Part shown: positions 1 through 7,000 of the stretch, in pieces
How the letters are laid out: each line of letters begins with the position of its first letter
How positions within the stretch are numbered: the stretch's first letter is position 1
Made by a program: the position numbers and the translations under genes
The notes under the pieces: model-generated
What the model was told of the DNA's origin: nothing
Databases searched by the model: none
What the model saw: only the letters and a program-made list of their open reading frames with translations
Assembly: GCA_963781585.1 (NCBI GenBank)
Contig: CAWAGQ010000013.1
Location: forward strand, 1 to 64,000
Origin: an uncultured Gemmatimonadaceae bacterium
GTDB lineage: Bacteria; Gemmatimonadota; Gemmatimonadetes; Gemmatimonadales; Gemmatimonadaceae
Direction: 5' to 3'
DNA length: 64,000 nucleotides

Positions 1-2
1 TC

Positions 3-1366
3 GTGCGGGAGATGCTGTGGGACGAGATCGCGGTGGTGGGGTTCGCCGACGTGCGCGACGAGGCGATCGACCAGCGGCTCCACGCGGCCGGATACGTCGA
101 GATCTACGGCAAGCCGGTGGTCCCGGAGGAAGTCGCCGCCGGGATCAGGCAGGTTCTCCATCGGAAGGAACTCGCGAACCTCACGGGTCTCACCGGCGAG
201 TCGGAGGCGATCCGCGAGGTGCTGGTCCAGGTGGAGCAGATCGCTCCGGTGTCGAGCACGGTGCTCATCGAGGGCGAGAGTGGAACGGGGAAGGAGCTGG
301 TGGCGCGCGCCATCCACCGCCTCAGTCCCCGGCGCAACAAGCCGTTCATCGCGGTGAACGTGGGCGCGCTCCCCGAGACGCTGCTGGAGAGCGAGCTGTT
401 CGGGCACGAGAAGGGGTCGTTCACCGGCGCGGCGGAGCGGCGGCTGGGGCGGTTCGAGCTGGCGCACGGCGGCACGATCTTCCTCGACGAGATCGGCGAG
501 GTGCCGTCGTCCACGCAGGTGAAGCTGCTGCGGGTGCTGGAGGAGCGGGAGCTCACGCGCGTGGGGGGCGTGCAGGCGATCCCGGTGGACGTGCGGGTGG
601 TGGCGGCGGCGAACCTCCCGCTGCGCGACGCGGTGGAGCAGGGGGCATTCCGGGCCGACCTGTTCTACCGGCTGAACGTGCTCGCGCATCTATCTCCCGC
701 CGCTGCGCGAGCGCAAGGACGACATCCCGCTCCTGGTGCGGCGTTTCGTGGGCGAGATCACGCGGCAGCACGACCGGCCGTTCCACGGCATCTCGGCGGA
801 CGCGCTGGAGCTGCTGGTGGAGTATCCGTGGCCGGGGAACGTGCGCGAGCTGCGCAACCTGGTGGAGAGCATGGTGGTGCTGGCGCCGGGTCGGGAGATC
901 GGGCCGGACGGACATTCCGCCGCAGATCCGCGACGCCGGCGCCGCGCGGTTCCTGCCGGTGCATCTGGGTCCCATGCTGCGGGAGCGGGCCGGGACCGAG
1001 GGGCGCGAGCTGGAGTTCATCCTCCGGAGCCTGGTGGAGCTCAAGCTGCACGTTGAGGAGTTGCGCCGCCGGGTGGACGATCTGAGCTCGGCGTCGTCGG
1101 CGTGGCTGGGCGAGGTGCGGCCGCAGGTTGCGTTGCCGGCCGCGTCAGGGATCGAGGCGCGGGATGCGGCGCCGCCGCCCAATACGGCCACGATCAAGGC
1201 GGGGATGAGCATGGCGGACGTGGAGCGCGCGGCGATCGAGGTGGCGCTCAGGGAGACGCGTGGGAACCGGCGGAAGGCGGCAGAGATGTTGCAGATCGGG
1301 GAGCGGACGCTGTACCGGAAGCTGAGGGAGTACCAGCTGCCGGTAGACGAAGTCGTCCTTGATTAA
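3..1366 (+). CDS. Sigma-54-dependent transcriptional regulator (AAA+ and Fis-type HTH), 5'-partial, two apparent frameshifts near 690 and 910
   Basis: GESGTGKE Walker A, ESELFGHEKGSFTGA, FLDEIGE, FRADLFYRLNV; continues in other frames as WPGNVRELRN and GNRRKAAEMLQIGERTLYRKL. Confidence 0.93.
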   Translation, partial: AGDAVGRDRGGGVRRRARRGDRPAAPRGRIRRDLRQAGGPGGSRRRDQAGSPSEGTREPHGSHRRVGGDPRGAGPGGADRSGVEHGAHRGREWNGEGAGGARHPPPQSPAQQAVHRGERGRAPRDAAGERAVRAREGVVHRRGGAAAGAVRAGARRHDLPRRDRRGAVVHAGEAAAGAGGAGAHARGGRAGDPGGRAGGGGGEPPAARRGGAGGIPGRPVLPAERARASISRRCASARTTSRSWCGVSWARSRGSTTGRSTASRRTRWSCWWSIRGRGTCASCATWWRAWWCWRRVGRSGRTDIPPQIRDAGAARFLPVHLGPMLRERAGTEGRELEFILRSLVELKLHVEELRRRVDDLSSASSAWLGEVRPQVALPAASGIEARDAAPPPNTATIKAGMSMADVERAAIEVALRETRGNRRKAAEMLQIGERTLYRKLREYQLPVDEVVLD

Positions 1367-1471
1367 TGCCGCTGCCGGCGGCATAATTTCGGCGCCGCCT
1401 AACCTGTTGAATTACAATCGCCTAAGCCTCGGGGTCCATGCAACGTCTGCGCGGTTGCGCGGGCGTTTCTG

Positions 1472-2245
1472 GTGCAGACGAATCGGGAGCACGCGATGAT
1501 GGTACCTCAGCCGCAGCCGTCCGCGATCGCGGGTAGCGTCCTGCCAATCAAGCGGGCGGAGGAGCTGTTGCAGACGTTGCCGGGGATCATTGCGGCGCGG
1601 ATCATCGCGGGTGAGACGGGGGCGGTGGACGAGATCCATGTGCTGACGTCCAATGAGGTTACGCCCAAGCAGACAGTAAGAAATATCGAGAGTGCGCTGA
1701 TTGCGCATCTCGGGATGCGTGTGGACCACCGGAAGATTTCGGTGGCGACGAGCCTGGAGCCCAGGAGGGCTCCGGAGCCGAAAGTGGAGGAGGCGCCGCC
1801 GGGCGCGCCGGTGGTGCCGGGAGCCCCGCCTGCTCAAGTGGAGGGTGTGGAGCGCCGAGACTTCCTGTTCGAGGATGTGGAGGTGCGGCGGTCGCGGGCG
1901 AAGGGCATTTCGTGTCGCGTGACGCTTACAAAGGGTGATCAGTCTTTCATCGGGGAAGCTGAGGGGTTGGAGACCGAGCGTTCGCGGGTGGAGTTGGCGG
2001 CGCGGGCGGCATTGCGGGCGATCGCGGACGGTGAGCCGACGGCGCGGTCGTTGGACCTCAGCGGGGCGCGGGTGGTGGATGCATTCGAGAGAGAGTTCGC
2101 CTTTGTGGGTGTGATGGCGCAGCTGGCGCGTGAGTCGTCGTTGTTGACGGGGACGTGTGAGGTGAAGGACAGTCCCGAGACGGCGAGTGTGCTGGCGGTG
2201 CTGGACGCGACGAATCGTTGGCTGGCGCATCCCCGGCGCATGTAG
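1472..2245 (+). CDS. Conserved hypothetical two-domain protein
   Basis: Clean 257-aa ORF; EIHVLT...PKQTVRNIESAL...VDHRKISVA segment, Pro-rich linker, second alpha/beta domain ending AVLDATNR. Confidence 0.8.
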   Translation: MQTNREHAMMVPQPQPSAIAGSVLPIKRAEELLQTLPGIIAARIIAGETGAVDEIHVLTSNEVTPKQTVRNIESALIAHLGMRVDHRKISVATSLEPRRAPEPKVEEAPPGAPVVPGAPPAQVEGVERRDFLFEDVEVRRSRAKGISCRVTLTKGDQSFIGEAEGLETERSRVELAARAALRAIADGEPTARSLDLSGARVVDAFEREFAFVGVMAQLARESSLLTGTCEVKDSPETASVLAVLDATNRWLAHPRRM

Positions 2246-2446
2246 CGTGCGCGGTGGCCGGCTGACTGGAGCAGGAGTCAGACAACCGGCAAAGAGGCGC
2301 GCGCGAAACCTAACGACAATTGAGCCCCCCGTTCCCGCTCGAGCGAAGGTAAGCGGGACCGGAAGTGTGTAGTACGAGCGGAGCCGACCGAAGGTCGCAT
2401 ATCCGAGTCAGGGTATGACGTTTTCCTAAGGGAGGTGACGCTGCTT

Positions 2447-2494
2447 ATGGAGTGGCTTCTTGCGCTCTTAAGTCAATGGGTTAGTTGGACGTAG
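2447..2494 (+). CDS. Small 15-aa Trp-rich hydrophobic peptide MEWLLALLSQWVSWT (below the ORF-track cut-off)
   Basis: AAGGGAGGTGA Shine-Dalgarno at 2428-2438, 8 nt before ATG 2447; TAG at 2492-2494. Confidence 0.65.
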   Translation: MEWLLALLSQWVSWT

Positions 2495-2565
2495 TGAGGA
2501 GCGGGGGGCAGTCACTCTGTGCAAGAACGAAGAGTTGAACTCTGACTTGACGTCGACAATCTCAA

Positions 2566-4029
2566 GTGGTCGCGAGCCGCTGTGGTCCACTACCGACGGG
2601 GCATCCGGAAGCAATTTGCGCTGTGATTGAGAATCGAGCTGTACTGCCCCGACTCAAGCCGCGTCCGTGGAGTCGCCTGACCGAACGCGCGCGCGTTGAT
2701 CGCGTGAGCGATCAGAATGCGAATCGCGCGATCCCTCTCGCGTGCGCCATAGCGCTACTCGCCGCGTTGGCCTTGTGGAAAGTGTCGAGGGGTGATCACC
2801 GTCTCGACGCGCACTCGATTGAGCTGGCTCTCACGCTCGTGGCCGTCGGGCTTGGGGCCGAGTTGCTCTCATACAATGCGACTCGCGCTGCTGCCGGCTC
2901 TATTGCATTGATGCCGTTTGCCGCGGCTGCTCTTCTAGCGCCCCATAGTCTCGCTGTTGCCGCCGTCGTAGCCGCAGAACTGGTAGTGCAGCTCCTGCAT
3001 CGGCGCTCCTGGGTCAAGTCGCTCTTCAACCTTGCCCAGTTCGCCCTAGGCATTTCGAGCGGAATCCTCGCGTATCGCCTGGCAGGAGGCTTCGAGTTTG
3101 CAGAAGTTGTTGGCGAGTCGTTCTTTGCAGCCGCCAAGGACCTGCTGTTGCCGACAACTTTCCTGGTAACGGCTATGCTGCTGGTAAACACCTTGAGCGT
3201 CAGTGCCGCAATTGCCGTGACGACCCGGAAGTCCCTGTTCGAGGTCTGGTATCAGATTACACGGGCCACAACAAAATTCTCCTTCTTGTTGGTGCTCTTG
3301 GCCTTCTATTTGACATGGTTGAGCCTCAACCTCGGAATAATGGGCACAGCCGGTCTGGTCATGCCGATGATCGCTGTGCGCCAGCTATATCGGAACACGG
3401 TTGAGCTAACGAATGTCACTGAGGAGTTGCTTGACCTGATGGTCGCTACAGTTGAGGCACGGGATCCCTACACTTCAGGACATAGCCAGCGGGTGGCTCG
3501 AGGCTCTGAAATCATCGCGCGCGCTCTTGGCCTCAGCGATTTGGACGTCGAGCGCGTGTCCATCGCTGCGCTGCTTCACGACGTGGGGAAGATCGACGAG
3601 CGGTTCGCCCCAATTCTAGCGAAGGAGGGGAGGCTTACTCCGGAGGAATGGGCCATCATGAAGGTGCATCCCATTCGAAGTGCAGAGTTGGTTGGAAAGC
3701 TCTCCACCTTGCGCGACATCGTCCCTTCTGTTCGGCATCACCATGAAAACTGGGATGGGACTGGATACCCAGATGGGATCCGAGGCGCAGAGATTCCAGC
3801 CGCATCAAGGATCATCATGTTCGCCGACACGCTGGATGCGATAACCACCGATCGCCCCTACAGGAAGGCCTTGGGAATCGAGGAGGCTCGCGCCGAGTTC
3901 ATTCGGTTCAGAGGAAAGCAGTTCGATCCTGAAATCTGCGATGCGGTGGTCTCACGCGATGTCTGGGCGGAGCTGTATACCTGCTTCGGAGACCAGAGCC
4001 GGGCCAGAAGTCACGCTGTAGCCTCATAG
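2566..4029 (+). CDS. Membrane-bound HD-GYP cyclic-dinucleotide phosphodiesterase (true start probably near 2704)
   Basis: Multiple N-terminal hydrophobic helices; RDPYTSGHSQRV, LLHDVGK, HHENWDGTGYPDG, DRPYRKAL. Confidence 0.92.
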   Translation: MVASRCGPLPTGHPEAICAVIENRAVLPRLKPRPWSRLTERARVDRVSDQNANRAIPLACAIALLAALALWKVSRGDHRLDAHSIELALTLVAVGLGAELLSYNATRAAAGSIALMPFAAAALLAPHSLAVAAVVAAELVVQLLHRRSWVKSLFNLAQFALGISSGILAYRLAGGFEFAEVVGESFFAAAKDLLLPTTFLVTAMLLVNTLSVSAAIAVTTRKSLFEVWYQITRATTKFSFLLVLLAFYLTWLSLNLGIMGTAGLVMPMIAVRQLYRNTVELTNVTEELLDLMVATVEARDPYTSGHSQRVARGSEIIARALGLSDLDVERVSIAALLHDVGKIDERFAPILAKEGRLTPEEWAIMKVHPIRSAELVGKLSTLRDIVPSVRHHHENWDGTGYPDGIRGAEIPAASRIIMFADTLDAITTDRPYRKALGIEEARAEFIRFRGKQFDPEICDAVVSRDVWAELYTCFGDQSRARSHAVAS

Positions 4030-7000
4030 CACTCAATTCCTAGCTCGGCCGCAATCCGACGAAGGGATAGAGGTAGGCCTCCGCGATCGCGCCTCGTCAC
4101 GCGCAAGTAGTCTGTAAGGATCGATCGCGCAACGTCCGGTCGGCCCGTGCTGGCTAGGCCGCGAGCCAAGACGGCGACTGGATAGTCCTGACACCCAAGC
4201 GCGCTCAGAGACGGATGGAGCTCGAGAAGCCGCGACAGCGCTACGGATGCTGACTGGTTCTCTCTCAGTACCAGCCCGGCGGCTAACTGGGAGGCTAGAA
4301 GCACTTGTAGTGGTCGTTTCAGCCTTAGCAGCGGGCTTGCATCGATCATGAGGTCAGCACGGTCGGTCAGGCTGCTAGGATCGTCGGCTTCGAACGCAAG
4401 TCGAGCTTCGAGCTCGAAGACCATCGCGCGGGAGAAGTATGTGGGGTGCGCGGCATCGATCTCTCGCGCTGCCGCCAAAGATTCGCGAGCCTTCTCGAAG
4501 TCGGCCATGTCTAGCGAGATGAAGCCGAGGAGCTCGATGGCCGTGAAGGCGCCGTCTGTAATCCTGAGTCGCTTGGCGATGGCAAGCGACTCGTAGCAGA
4601 GCTCGCGAGCGAGCGAATAGCTACCCGTCCGGCGATACGAGTACGCAGCAAGTCGTAGGAGGGAAACTCTCTTTGACGGATCAAGAATGGCGAGAGCCTG
4701 TGTCACGAGTTGTCCAGCGGCCCGGTCCGCAACATCGATGTCGCCAAACCCGGTGTGAAATACCATCTCGATTGTGAGCCGCTTGGCCACATCATCGAAG
4801 GAAGACTCCGTTACGCTTCTCGAAGCGTCGTAGTACGAGCGAGCTGCAATCGGGTCCGCGTCGTTGTCGGCATGCATCAAGCCCAGGATGGCGGCGTCAA
4901 GTCGATGGGCGTCTGACGCGCTTTGGCTCCTGATGCACAACTCTAGGTCTGCCGGAAGCTGTCCGAAGGTACCAGCCGAATGGTAGTGTGCCTCGAATTC
5001 AAGTAGCTCAAGATCATCGTGCGTCCGGTGACTCGGAGAATTCTGGACTGACGATCGGATCTGTCTTGCAATGTCAAGGAGGCGGTCCCAGTCACGGAGA
5101 ATCCGACTTCCACGCGCCGTAGCGAGCAAGATCCTGTGATGGTCCGCAGGCCCTGGGCAGTGAGCGTCAACGTCGTCCAGCACCCGAATGGCCTCTACGG
5201 CGAGGCCAGCTGACAACAGCTTCTCGGCAAGAGTCACAGCAAGTCGAGTTCCGCGTTCTGGGGCACCGGCGCACTTCCAATGATGGACGCACTGCCAGAG
5301 ATCCGGGACGGCTCGGCGCTTCGCAACCTCCCGAGATAGCAGCAGCGCAGCCTTCCTGTGTAGCCATCGTAGGGCGACCGACGGCGTCCGCTTTACAACC
5401 GCCTCGCGCAGGATCTCGTGGCGACACATCACGAGATTCTCGCTTGACGAGATCAGTCCGGCGGACTCAAGTTCCGAAACGGCGTCTAGCAAGGGGAACC
5501 CCAATGGGTCGACCATGCGTTCTAGCCGATCCATTGTTGAAAGCGATCCAAGAACTGCGCACGCCTGAAGGAGCTGGAAGGATGATTTGCTTAACAGGCC
5601 AAGCCTCTGTTCCAACAGTGCCTGAACTGATACAGGAAGCTCGGCTGCCGAGGAGAGGTCGCGGCGGTACCTGAGCAGTTCGATTAGAAAGTAGGGATTA
5701 CCACTCGACAGAGAGACCACGCGTTCTTTCGCGGCGGCCTCGACGATCACGCCATTCCGAACACTGTACTCTTTAACGAGTTCGGCAGCGCCGGCATCAG
5801 AGAGCGGGCCTAACCGGTGATGGATGCTTCGCTCGAACAAGCCCCTTAGCTTCTCAGACGCATTCGGACTTGCGGGGTCCCGAGCGCACAGGAGCAGGGC
5901 GAAAGGTTGCTTGTCGAAGACTTGAGCAAGATCCTCAAAGACGAGTAGGCTCGCCGGATCCGCATTCTGCAAGTCGTCGATGTGCAGGAGGAGAGGGCCT
6001 TCGCTGACAATCGCGTCTAGCAGGTCCCGGATTGCCCAACGAACCGACGCAAAACGGGTCTCTGCGTCCGAAGGCATCGCCGGGTCATCAATTCGTTCTT
6101 CGGTGCTCGGCGAGATCCACCGGAGGCATTCAAGCGCCTCGGGAGCGCAACCCAGCGCGCCGGGTAGGGCGAACAGTCGAGGTACCAACTCCGTCAATGT
6201 CGCGAGGGGTTGGTTCCGATTGCTAGGCTGCGTACTCATGCTCAACACACGCGCGCCCTGCAGCCGCACGATGCGGCAACACTCTCTCGCCAGCCGGGTC
6301 TTACCGATTCCGCCCTGCCCCGAGATGACGTACGAGATGCATTTCGGGCTCCTCAGGCGCTGGAGCGACGACACAACGCGTTCGACATCGCTTTCTCGTC
6401 CGATCAGGGATAGCTCGCGTCCTGCGAGTTCAGAGAATGCGATTCCATCCGCGATCCGCTCCCTCAGCACCTCCCCGGAAACCCGGAGTTCGACACCGTA
6501 ATGTCCCACTTCGCGCACGTACCGATCGATCATCCCCACCGCCTCCGCCTTCCCTCCGGCCAGCGCAATCGCTTCCGCCAACGCCAGTGTCGCCTCCTCG
6601 TTCAGCGGATCCAGCGCAATGCAGTGCCGCGCCAAGCGCTCCACCTCCGTATACCGCCCCCGCGCACGCATCTCCGCGATCGCGCGCACCAGACCGCGCC
6701 GCAGCTGCGCCCCGATCTCGCTCCGAAACTCCTCTACCCACCGCGTAAATGGAGCAGAAAACCGTGGGGTGTAGCCGGGGAGCACCGACACGTCGCTCAG
6801 CGCTGCGTACGCACTCGACGATGCCCCCTCGGCGATTACCGGTGTGTAATCCGACGCGACCATTCGCTCGTCGAGCATCGTAGTCTTCGCTCCGCTCCGC
6901 ACCGGCACACCCACCGCTCGCAGCCGATACAACGCCTGACGCAGACAGTGCCGCGCCCCCTCCAGGTCCTGCTCCGGCCAGAACAGCCCCGCGACCTCGT

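Follow-up and report, generated by a model that had tools for sequence, protein, structure and literature searches.

A gene module made up of a conserved protein of unknown function (hyp257), a messenger RNA leader, a very short open reading frame (micro-ORF) within that leader and a membrane HD-GYP gene is conserved across the Gemmatimonadota and recurs in the Actinomycetota. We describe it from a stretch of 64,000 nucleotides (nt) from an uncultured Gemmatimonadaceae bacterium (contig CAWAGQ010000013.1, positions 1 to 64,000), called the window throughout. Judged from its sequence features, the micro-ORF is a real gene under purifying selection. It is embedded in a leader of about 190 nt that is predicted to fold. 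Among the enzymes of cyclic-dinucleotide turnover, those of HD-GYP type are understood least, and MASE-type membrane sensor domains have no known ligands or partners. Conservation throughout one phylum and into another now ties a candidate peptide partner (14-31 residues), a candidate RNA switch and an accessory protein to one MASE9-HD-GYP subfamily, and the control of a MASE9 sensor becomes a directly testable question. With it come a micro-protein family that has so far gone unannotated and an RNA element that Rfam lacks; gene callers have overlooked the conserved micro-ORF in hundreds of genomes. In the window, its three genes are placed as follows.

1472-2245, plus strand: hyp257, a conserved unknown two-domain protein (257 amino acids (aa); likely start ATG 1496, with the conserved part beginning nearby)
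2447-2494, plus strand: micro-ORF (15 codons; tryptophan (Trp) at positions 3, 11 and 14, the last of these being the second-last residue)
2566-4029, plus strand: membrane HD-GYP gene with a MASE9-like N-terminal domain (487 aa; start GTG 2566 or GTG 2623)

The micro-ORF family and its gene neighbourhood

An earlier note, made from the DNA letters alone, had pointed to a Shine-Dalgarno (SD) sequence followed by a Trp-rich ORF of 15 codons, and direct reading of the sequence bears this out. An SD-like run at 2428-2438 (plus strand) is followed after 8 nt by ATG 2447, and the frame closes with a TAG stop at 2492-2494. The spacer between the GGAGG core and the ATG is 11 nt, which lies at the long end of the usual range.

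Plain DNA similarity matched the middle of the intergenic region in 4 of 40 relatives. When these matches were aligned, they shared an invariant core that ended in the SD, and each had a small hydrophobic ORF next to it downstream. Two invariant blocks were combined into a search pattern, which was scanned over species-representative genomes and proved far more sensitive than plain similarity, returning at least 120 stretches, most of them in Gemmatimonadaceae assemblies. From the matches listed we drew 83 family loci (82 without the window). Some of these are near-identical, and 68 were left once those more than 90% alike had been removed. About a dozen pattern matches in unrelated genomes are chance: every other part of the module is absent there, and they were excluded from the family counts (they include L014, L015, L025, L036, L048, L054, L058, L064, L073, L078 and L084). 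Locus L099 was excluded by an energy threshold, its end-closing helix (P1, described below) being weak at -13.9 kcal/mol.

Behind the same SD, all 83 loci carry an ORF of 15-28 codons, and because an ORF of the same kind follows the same SD in so many loci the micro-ORF is not a chance reading frame. These ORFs encode 76 distinct peptides. Of these, 58 have Trp in second-last position, 9 at the very end and 1 in third-last position; in 7 it lies further in, and 1 has none. Overall, Trp makes up 8.1% of residues, and the mean grand average of hydropathy (GRAVY) is 0.95. Conservation is strongest in the last six residues. Start codons are ATG (73 loci) or GTG (10), and all three stop codons are used (TAG 33, TAA 27, TGA 23). 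Conservation at the codon level, a check suggested in the earlier note, points the same way: over 79 related, non-independent pairs, the ratio of non-synonymous to synonymous change (pN/pS) is 0.42 in the micro-ORF frame, compared with 1.00 and 1.49 in the other two frames. We therefore take the peptide sequence itself to be under selection. A search of NCBIfam with 21 micro-ORF peptides gave no match above noise.

Within the window's family, 48 of the 93 genomes sampled contain the exact pattern, most of them once. The pattern was found in none of 307 genomes from eleven other Gemmatimonadota families, and a reversed-pattern control likewise gave 0. Four family loci without the exact pattern hold one-base variants of it and retain the Trp-ending ORF. 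The clade to which the window belongs combines an N-terminal extension of the HD-GYP protein (about 70 residues; 2566-2780 in the window) with the shortest peptides of the family (15-18 aa), and these two traits may be linked.

The genes on either side are as constant as the ORF. A hyp257 homologue lies upstream on the same strand in 50/50 Gemmatimonadaceae loci with at least 1000 nt of flank, and the HD-GYP gene lies downstream in 43/43 with at least 1500 nt. Further upstream, the C-terminal homologue of a sigma-54 activator is present in 40 of the 47 loci with enough flank. Across the phylum, the hyp257 family was found in 27/31, 71/71, 2/2, 3/3 and 3/3 genomes of five Gemmatimonadota families and at lower frequency in others.

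Outside the window's family, twelve loci were sampled from seven other Gemmatimonadota families. In 11 of them the order is the same: the hyp257 gene, then a diverged leader holding a hydrophobic ORF of 14-31 codons that is led by an SD and has Trp as its last or second-last residue, then the HD-GYP gene. The covariance model built on the family matches leaders of these other families with E values from 1.8e-5 to 7e-3. The twelfth locus (L141, genome G080, 1232-2495) has an extra gene inserted between the hyp257 gene and the leader; the leader (covariance-model match 1996-2135, E 1.8e-5) and a 24-codon ORF remain beside its HD-GYP gene.

The second phylum was reached through the MASE9 family. 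PF20972 was searched in 81 Actinomycetota genomes, 24 of which had a match, and 16 of the fetched loci are MASE9-HD-GYP genes; among control genomes, the family also gave matches in Thermotoga and Thermus. All 16 have a related micro-ORF upstream (20-30 codons; its peptide begins basic, continues as a hydrophobic helix and closes with a short tail), and none of eight Actinomycetota MASE9 loci of other architecture has one. The peptides end in a basic residue and Trp in 10 of the 16. Their last residues vary, while the N-terminal basic and hydrophobic helix pattern is retained. By eye, a long-range helix flanking leader and ORF can be read in 8 of these loci. Leaders of 12 of the 16 contain two to five AGCGRR motifs, at about ten times background density. 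A hyp257 homologue (27-43% identity) lies within the 1.5-kb flank in 9 of the 16. All 9 are among the 12 motif loci, and the 4 loci without the motif have no homologue in the flank (one-sided Fisher test 0.019, for loci that are kin and not independent). In locus L165 the micro-ORF is present twice in tandem: the copies are identical, each has an SD of its own, and they lie about 310 and 420 nt before the point at which the HD-GYP match begins. The genome tallies given above for the exact pattern, for hyp257 and for PF20972 include a few genomes flagged as unpublished (G008 for the first, G091 and G130 for the second, G446 for the third; G008 is also in the CsrA tally below), none of which carries a single claim by itself, and locus L173 was left out.

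These counts also bear on two things that the earlier note had offered as unverified. The first, that the family of the upstream hypothetical protein neighbours HD-GYP genes, holds for the 50 Gemmatimonadaceae loci, for 12/12 loci of other Gemmatimonadota and, within 1.5 kb, for 9/16 of the Actinomycetota. The second, that short Trp-ending peptides precede similar sensors in other phyla, holds for one further phylum, with 10 basic-Trp peptides in the Actinomycetota, the other 6 being clearly related with another ending. A scan for small ORFs upstream of homologues, also proposed there, found comparable ORFs in 82 further Gemmatimonadaceae loci, in 12/12 other Gemmatimonadota loci and in 16/16 Actinomycetota loci.

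The leader RNA, its flanking proteins and the wider locus

The leader has five recognizable elements in the window. We label the predicted helices P1, P3 and P4.

2323-2340, plus strand: P1 5' strand, an invariant C-run (2325-2330) and 10 nt more, preceded by an A-rich tract
2341-2389, plus strand: GAG pentamer-repeat region (repeat 1, 2341-2348; repeat 2, 2352-2357; repeat 3, 2376-2389)
2398-2417, plus strand: P4, a variable hairpin between the anti-SD strand and the SD, with compensatory changes
2428-2441, plus strand: micro-ORF SD with the conserved bases 3' of it (P3 3' strand), invariant in 68/68 sequences
2492-2510, plus strand: P1 3' strand, which begins at the stop codon, ends with a G-run (2503-2508) and forms a duplex with 2323-2340

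P1 joins the 5' end of the leader to the end of the micro-ORF, with a computed duplex energy of -34.0 kcal/mol in the window. Over the 68 non-redundant loci, mean energies are -29.4 kcal/mol for cognate strands, -21.9 for non-cognate strands and -14.0 for shuffled partners, and 417 of 4556 non-cognate strand pairs are as stable as the cognate ones. Since the cognate duplex is the strongest of the three, the P1 strands covary. Its 3' strand starts within -3 to +4 nt of the stop codon in 70 of the 83 loci. Inside P1, the third GAG repeat (2376-2389) is the predicted anti-SD strand, pairing with 2430-2441 to form P3 (RNAalifold), and all eight predicted pairs are kept in 68/68 sequences. P4 shows compensatory double changes at three pairs, in 21, 18 and 31 of the 68 sequences. 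The minimum-free-energy fold of the window contains all three helices.

The columns of the GAG repeats are invariant in the family alignments; each leader has 6.9 GAG triplets, and a GAG recurring 5 nt further on was observed 147 times in the 68 leaders, compared with 4.9 in shuffles. Rfam 15, which includes the c-di-GMP-I and c-di-GMP-II families, gave 0 matches at E<=1 in window positions 1300-4300 and in loci L007, L142, L145 and L147. We also considered the hairpin at 2398-2417 and its U-run as a terminator, and rejected this because the U-run is not conserved in relatives.

Directly before the C-run, at 2305-2322, is an A-rich tract: over 66 loci, A has a frequency of 0.42-0.61 per position (-15 to -3) in G+C-rich surroundings. 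It could be a promoter -10 region or the 5' end of the transcript. No sigma-54 or sigma-70 consensus was found at the tract, and a consensus scan found no conserved sigma-54 site in up to 1350 nt upstream of the leader.

The downstream protein matches HD_5 (Pfam, 3e-34) over residues 292-457, with the motifs HD at 338, HHH at 391 and GYP at 400. Ahead of this catalytic domain, about 6-7 hydrophobic segments lie between residues 55 and 271, in keeping with the multi-helix HD-GYP sensor named in the earlier note. The closest solved HD-GYP domains are 5z7c (5.5e-40) and 4mcw (1.4e-34), and the best solved relative is an enzyme specific for cyclic GMP-AMP (cGAMP). By domain and motifs, then, the protein is of the HD-GYP cyclic-dinucleotide phosphodiesterase type, with cyclic di-GMP (c-di-GMP) and 3'3'-cGAMP as candidate substrates. 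For the MASE9 domain (PF20972), the window protein scores 17.3-17.7 bits, under the cut-off of 24.3, and its homologues in loci L126 and L127 score 33.0 and 27.2 bits. It is 30-36% identical to the Actinomycetota proteins retrieved with PF20972.

The distance between the micro-ORF and the sensor gene is short in most of the family. In 34 of 44 loci, 23-43 nt separate the micro-ORF stop from the first start codon in frame with HD-GYP, which places that start a few nt past P1. In the examples read, the G-run of P1 is the only purine-rich run there, 8-13 nt before the HD-GYP ATG.

The upstream protein, hyp257, has no match to a Pfam family, LeuA_dimer included (E<=0.01), or an NCBIfam family and no sequence relative in the PDB (E<=1). 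In the protein atlas it falls in unnamed Gemmatimonadota clusters only. Its AlphaFold2 model (mean predicted local distance difference test score, pLDDT, 86.5) agrees with the two domains that the earlier note had seen, placing them at 18-85 and 124-243 with a disordered Pro/Ala linker between. The modelled N-domain is ferredoxin-like, a common fold. The modelled C-domain superposes on the regulatory domain of LiCMS (3f6g) with Z 9.4 and a root-mean-square deviation of 3.2 over 110/115 residues, and on LeuA with Z 7.7 (3fig); Foldseek gives an E of 2e-5 against 1sr9. On this model, the C-domain has a LeuA/citramalate-synthase-regulatory-like fold (two beta-beta-beta-alpha units) of amino-acid-binding type. 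Shorter paralogues that match the C-domain only are found on the same contig outside the window (203174-203593) and in many other genomes.

Two further genes flank the module in the window.

1-1366, plus strand: 3' part of a sigma-54 enhancer-binding activator, read from its ORF frames and truncated by the contig start
4011-7139, minus strand: convergent STAND-like regulator with AAA_16, TPR and BTAD (Pfam; 1042 aa), overlapping the 3' end of the HD-GYP gene by 19 nt

The earlier note had placed the co-oriented genes behind a sigma-54 activator. Order and strand are as it described; the activator is not intact, being cut by the contig start and carrying two apparent +1 frameshifts (near 689 and near 906) that spread it over three frames. 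Either it is a pseudogene or the shifts are assembly indels. Full-length activator homologues in loci L126 and L128 carry Sigma54_activat, AAA_lid_14 and HTH_8 (Pfam). In 23 of the 55 loci with enough flank, the HD-GYP gene is followed immediately, on the other strand, by a C-terminal homologue of the STAND-like regulator. The regulator is also present in L126 and L128, where a MoxR-type AAA_3 gene follows next, and it may be a further member of the module. G+C content drops from about 0.70 to 0.56-0.62 over window positions 2250-6300, a stretch that takes in the leader and the HD-GYP gene and reaches into the convergent regulator. Since the Gemmatimonadaceae keep the module in place, this dip is more likely a compositional property of the genes than a recent island. 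No tRNA or tmRNA gene was found in the window.

Readings of the module

Taken as a whole, the interpretation in the earlier note (a peptide ligand or intramembrane modulator of the sensor, with the hypothetical protein as a dedicated partner) is partly supported. Its two statements about the neighbourhood held up; what it overlooked was the folded RNA around the ORF. That RNA leads us to propose a cis-regulatory role for the ORF in HD-GYP translation and an alternative role for hyp257. The intramembrane-modulator idea fits the literature on the domain: in the part of their paper that bears on this point, Galperin and Chou (bioRxiv 10.1101/2021.11.05.467447), who defined MASE9, proposed that it binds a ligand within the membrane, and no ligand is named there.

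The reading we prefer, to which we give about an even chance, is that translation of the micro-ORF opens the leader and licenses translation of HD-GYP, that the peptide is a membrane partner of the sensor, and that hyp257 is the third component. In this scheme, P3 would keep the micro-ORF off until its SD is released. A ribosome finishing the micro-ORF would then have to melt P1. As the 3' strand of P1 holds the only SD-like G-run in most relatives, HD-GYP and the peptide would be translated together. HD-GYP translation is most simply read as dependent on the micro-ORF, because the terminating ribosome would cover or melt P1. The released peptide, a hydrophobic helix with a short tail and a terminal Trp, might remain membrane-bound and there partner or modulate the MASE9 domain; a membrane-inserting helix is plausible, from their sequences, for the 22-31-aa peptides of other Gemmatimonadota families and of Actinomycetota. 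The dedicated third component, hyp257, would most likely be a ligand-responsive factor that reads the GAG repeats (by a logic like that of TRAP) and so frees the SD. Its constant pairing with a GAG-repeat leader in two phyla suggests such ligand-dependent reading. A search for CsrA, the other protein that would be expected to read leaders rich in GGA, found none in the window's genome (93.5% complete), none in 10 of 12 relatives, and none in G003 and G004, relatives that carry the leader element.

Several observations weigh against this scheme. For the peptide, RNA constraints may contribute to the pN/pS signal, which also comes from related pairs. The window's own peptide, at 15 residues, is too short for a membrane-spanning helix, and the N-terminal basic residues of the Actinomycetota peptides are not present in the Gemmatimonadaceae ones. 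The terminal Trp is missing in 1 of the 12 peptides of other Gemmatimonadota families (that of L141), and 6 of the 16 Actinomycetota peptides, clearly related as they are, end otherwise. For the RNA, P3 is invariant within the family, so what speaks for it is complementarity and not covariation. The fold of the window is modestly better than that of shuffled sequences (z -1.65; 10 of 200 shuffles as good), and the family covariance model matches Actinomycetota leaders weakly (E 0.048, 0.5 and 0.81), at the right places. For the coupling, in the window and its closest clade 71 nt separate the micro-ORF stop from the first in-frame HD-GYP start, and 55 nt separate P1 from it; at that distance the window's G-run cannot be the SD of HD-GYP, which makes the coupling less obvious there. 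For hyp257, neither domain is basic (median net charge 0 and -1) and fold comparison gave no clear match to an RNA-binding fold, so its link with the repeats is one of co-occurrence. TRAP is not among the listed fold matches, which does not exclude a relation. The proposed reading of the GAG repeats by hyp257 is the least secure part of the model.

In its most complete form the same scheme becomes an ancient unit of three parts, shared by at least two phyla, in which hyp257, as a ligand sensor, would read the GAG repeats (by TRAP-like logic in an unrelated protein) and switch on the micro-ORF, translation of the micro-ORF would unlock the HD-GYP mRNA, and the Trp-tailed peptide of 14-31 residues would serve as the long-sought in-membrane ligand or subunit of MASE9. 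We consider this rather unlikely. If true, three new families, one of RNAs, one of RNA-binding proteins and one of micro-proteins, would act jointly on second-messenger turnover.

The micro-ORF could instead be a regulatory leader and nothing more. Its C-terminal residues would pause termination in the exit tunnel, as in TnaC or PepNL and possibly in response to a ligand or to Trp, P1 would stay open and HD-GYP would be induced, as in translational attenuation of the erm/cat type, and the peptide would have no task once released. Much of the family's anatomy suits this idea: the last six residues are the most conserved, Trp is second-last or last in 67 of 76 peptides, the stop codon lies within -3 to +4 nt of P1 in 70 of 83 loci, and peptides of 15-28 aa fit wholly inside the tunnel. 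There is also a precedent in the passages of PMC11890864 that concern a 14-aa termination-blocking peptide linked to Trp-tRNA. Yet three stop codons are in use, which argues against release-factor specificity. The Actinomycetota tails vary while an N-terminal pattern of membrane-insertion type is kept, hydrophobicity is conserved over the whole length of the peptide in two phyla, and one locus has tandem copies of the micro-ORF. We favour the role as a membrane partner over a pure arrest leader because the helix pattern, and not the exact tail, survives between phyla, and because all three stop codons are used and one genome duplicates the ORF. The pure leader is, in our view, distinctly unlikely.

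Another way to connect peptide and sensor is from outside the cell. The micro-ORF would then be the precursor of a pheromone of the ComS or SHP kind, from which a C-terminal piece is released and sensed externally by MASE9. The Actinomycetota peptides do resemble bare signal peptides (basic N-terminus, hydrophobic core, small residues and a tail of about 4 residues that closes with a basic residue and Trp), the noise-level NCBIfam matches are to signal-sequence models, and the micro-ORF adjoins the gene of a membrane sensor. Against this, the Pfam-scanned neighbours in three 19-kb contexts include no exporter, protease or oligopeptide permease, the Gemmatimonadaceae peptides have no basic N-terminus, and the tight coupling of micro-ORF translation to the sensor gene points to production of both in stoichiometric amounts and not to a diffusible signal. 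Peptide-to-c-di-GMP signalling by a secreted signal is the less likely version of that idea, and we hold it to be quite improbable.

A riboswitch would shift the sensing to the RNA. In that case the GAG-repeat core, closed by P1, would bind a ligand such as c-di-GMP, pGpG or 3'3'-cGAMP as feedback on the phosphodiesterase, and hyp257 would have its role elsewhere. Genes for cyclic-dinucleotide phosphodiesterases are classic riboswitch targets; in the leader, invariant bases that stay unpaired are surrounded by stems that covary, and the SD falls within the conserved core; and the domains of hyp257 are not basic. On the other side, the window and four other loci gave no Rfam match at E<=1. Short tandem repeats of 5 nt are typical of protein sites and not of ligand pockets, and here they co-occur with hyp257 in two phyla. 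P1 moreover encloses a variable ORF of 45-90 nt, which is unusual for an aptamer. A ligand-binding RNA seems highly doubtful. Least convincing of all is a small hydrophobic toxin of a type I toxin-antitoxin-like system, its mRNA silenced by a fold-back helix between 5' and 3' ends: the small hydrophobic ORF, the masked SD and the helix that brings the RNA's 5' end to the far side of the ORF resemble the mRNAs of hok and tisB. Such systems tend to have a variable genomic context and are often multi-copy, whereas here most genomes with a match have a single copy, the neighbours are fixed (50/50 and 43/43, and across phyla), nothing pointed to mobility and none of the peptides is described by a basic charge, being neutral to acidic; we hold a toxin to be extremely unlikely.

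Comparison with known systems

Returning to the preferred reading, in which the micro-ORF opens the leader for HD-GYP and its peptide partners the sensor, each step has a counterpart in a known system. In the attenuation leaders of ermC and of cat/cmlA, a short ORF with its own SD precedes a ribosome-binding site held in a helix, and the ribosome on the leader opens that helix. The window's leader is similar in that an ORF with its own SD lies upstream of the candidate regulated gene. It differs from these systems in that the helix spans a long distance, bringing the RNA's 5' end to the stop codon with the whole ORF inside it, and in that the SD of the micro-ORF is also masked. Furthermore, what different phyla conserve of the peptide is its hydrophobic helix, and no link to antibiotics is evident.

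Small membrane proteins that modulate sensors and pumps include MgrB and SafA (acting on PhoQ), AcrZ (on AcrB) and KdpF. By analogy, the module likewise encodes a tiny hydrophobic protein beside a larger membrane protein that is its presumed target. The peptides described here (14-31 aa) are shorter than most of those modulators, they are encoded in the structured leader of the target itself, and that target is a cyclic-dinucleotide phosphodiesterase.

For the repeats, the closest counterpart is TRAP, which reads (G/U)AG repeats in the trp leader of Bacillus. The leader described here similarly has GAG triplets with 2-nt spacers beside a structure that masks the SD, together with a neighbouring protein whose modelled fold is of amino-acid-binding type. 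That protein has no detected similarity to TRAP, there are about 7 GAG triplets per leader, and RNA binding by hyp257 is putative.

TnaC and PepNL, the latter as described in the relevant passages of PMC11890864, share with the micro-ORF a very short leader peptide whose C-terminal part matters, a stop at a regulatory point and a connection to Trp. In relation to those passages, the family differs in having no stop-codon preference, no conserved C-terminal Pro and a membrane-like peptide composition. RNA-level control within c-di-GMP signalling is also seen for sporulation small membrane proteins that lie behind known riboswitch classes; in the present case no Rfam family covers the RNA, and the gene beside it is that of the phosphodiesterase.

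The sensor gene belongs to a type that has been described. MASE9-HD-GYP proteins, of the type of TM1467 of Thermotoga maritima and HdgA of Streptomyces venezuelae, have the same architecture as the gene downstream of the micro-ORF, although the window's own MASE9 score is under the Pfam cut-off (17.3 vs 24.3 bits). The passages of 10.1101/2021.11.05.467447 that deal with them do not mention an upstream micro-ORF, a leader RNA or a two-domain partner protein. More generally, Rfam, Pfam, NCBIfam and the papers found by full-text search contain neither the RNA nor the families of the peptide and the accessory protein, nor the way these are combined on a cyclic-dinucleotide phosphodiesterase. The principles are known singly: control of a masked ribosome site by a leader ORF, small proteins that modulate sensors, and RNA regulators that read repeats.

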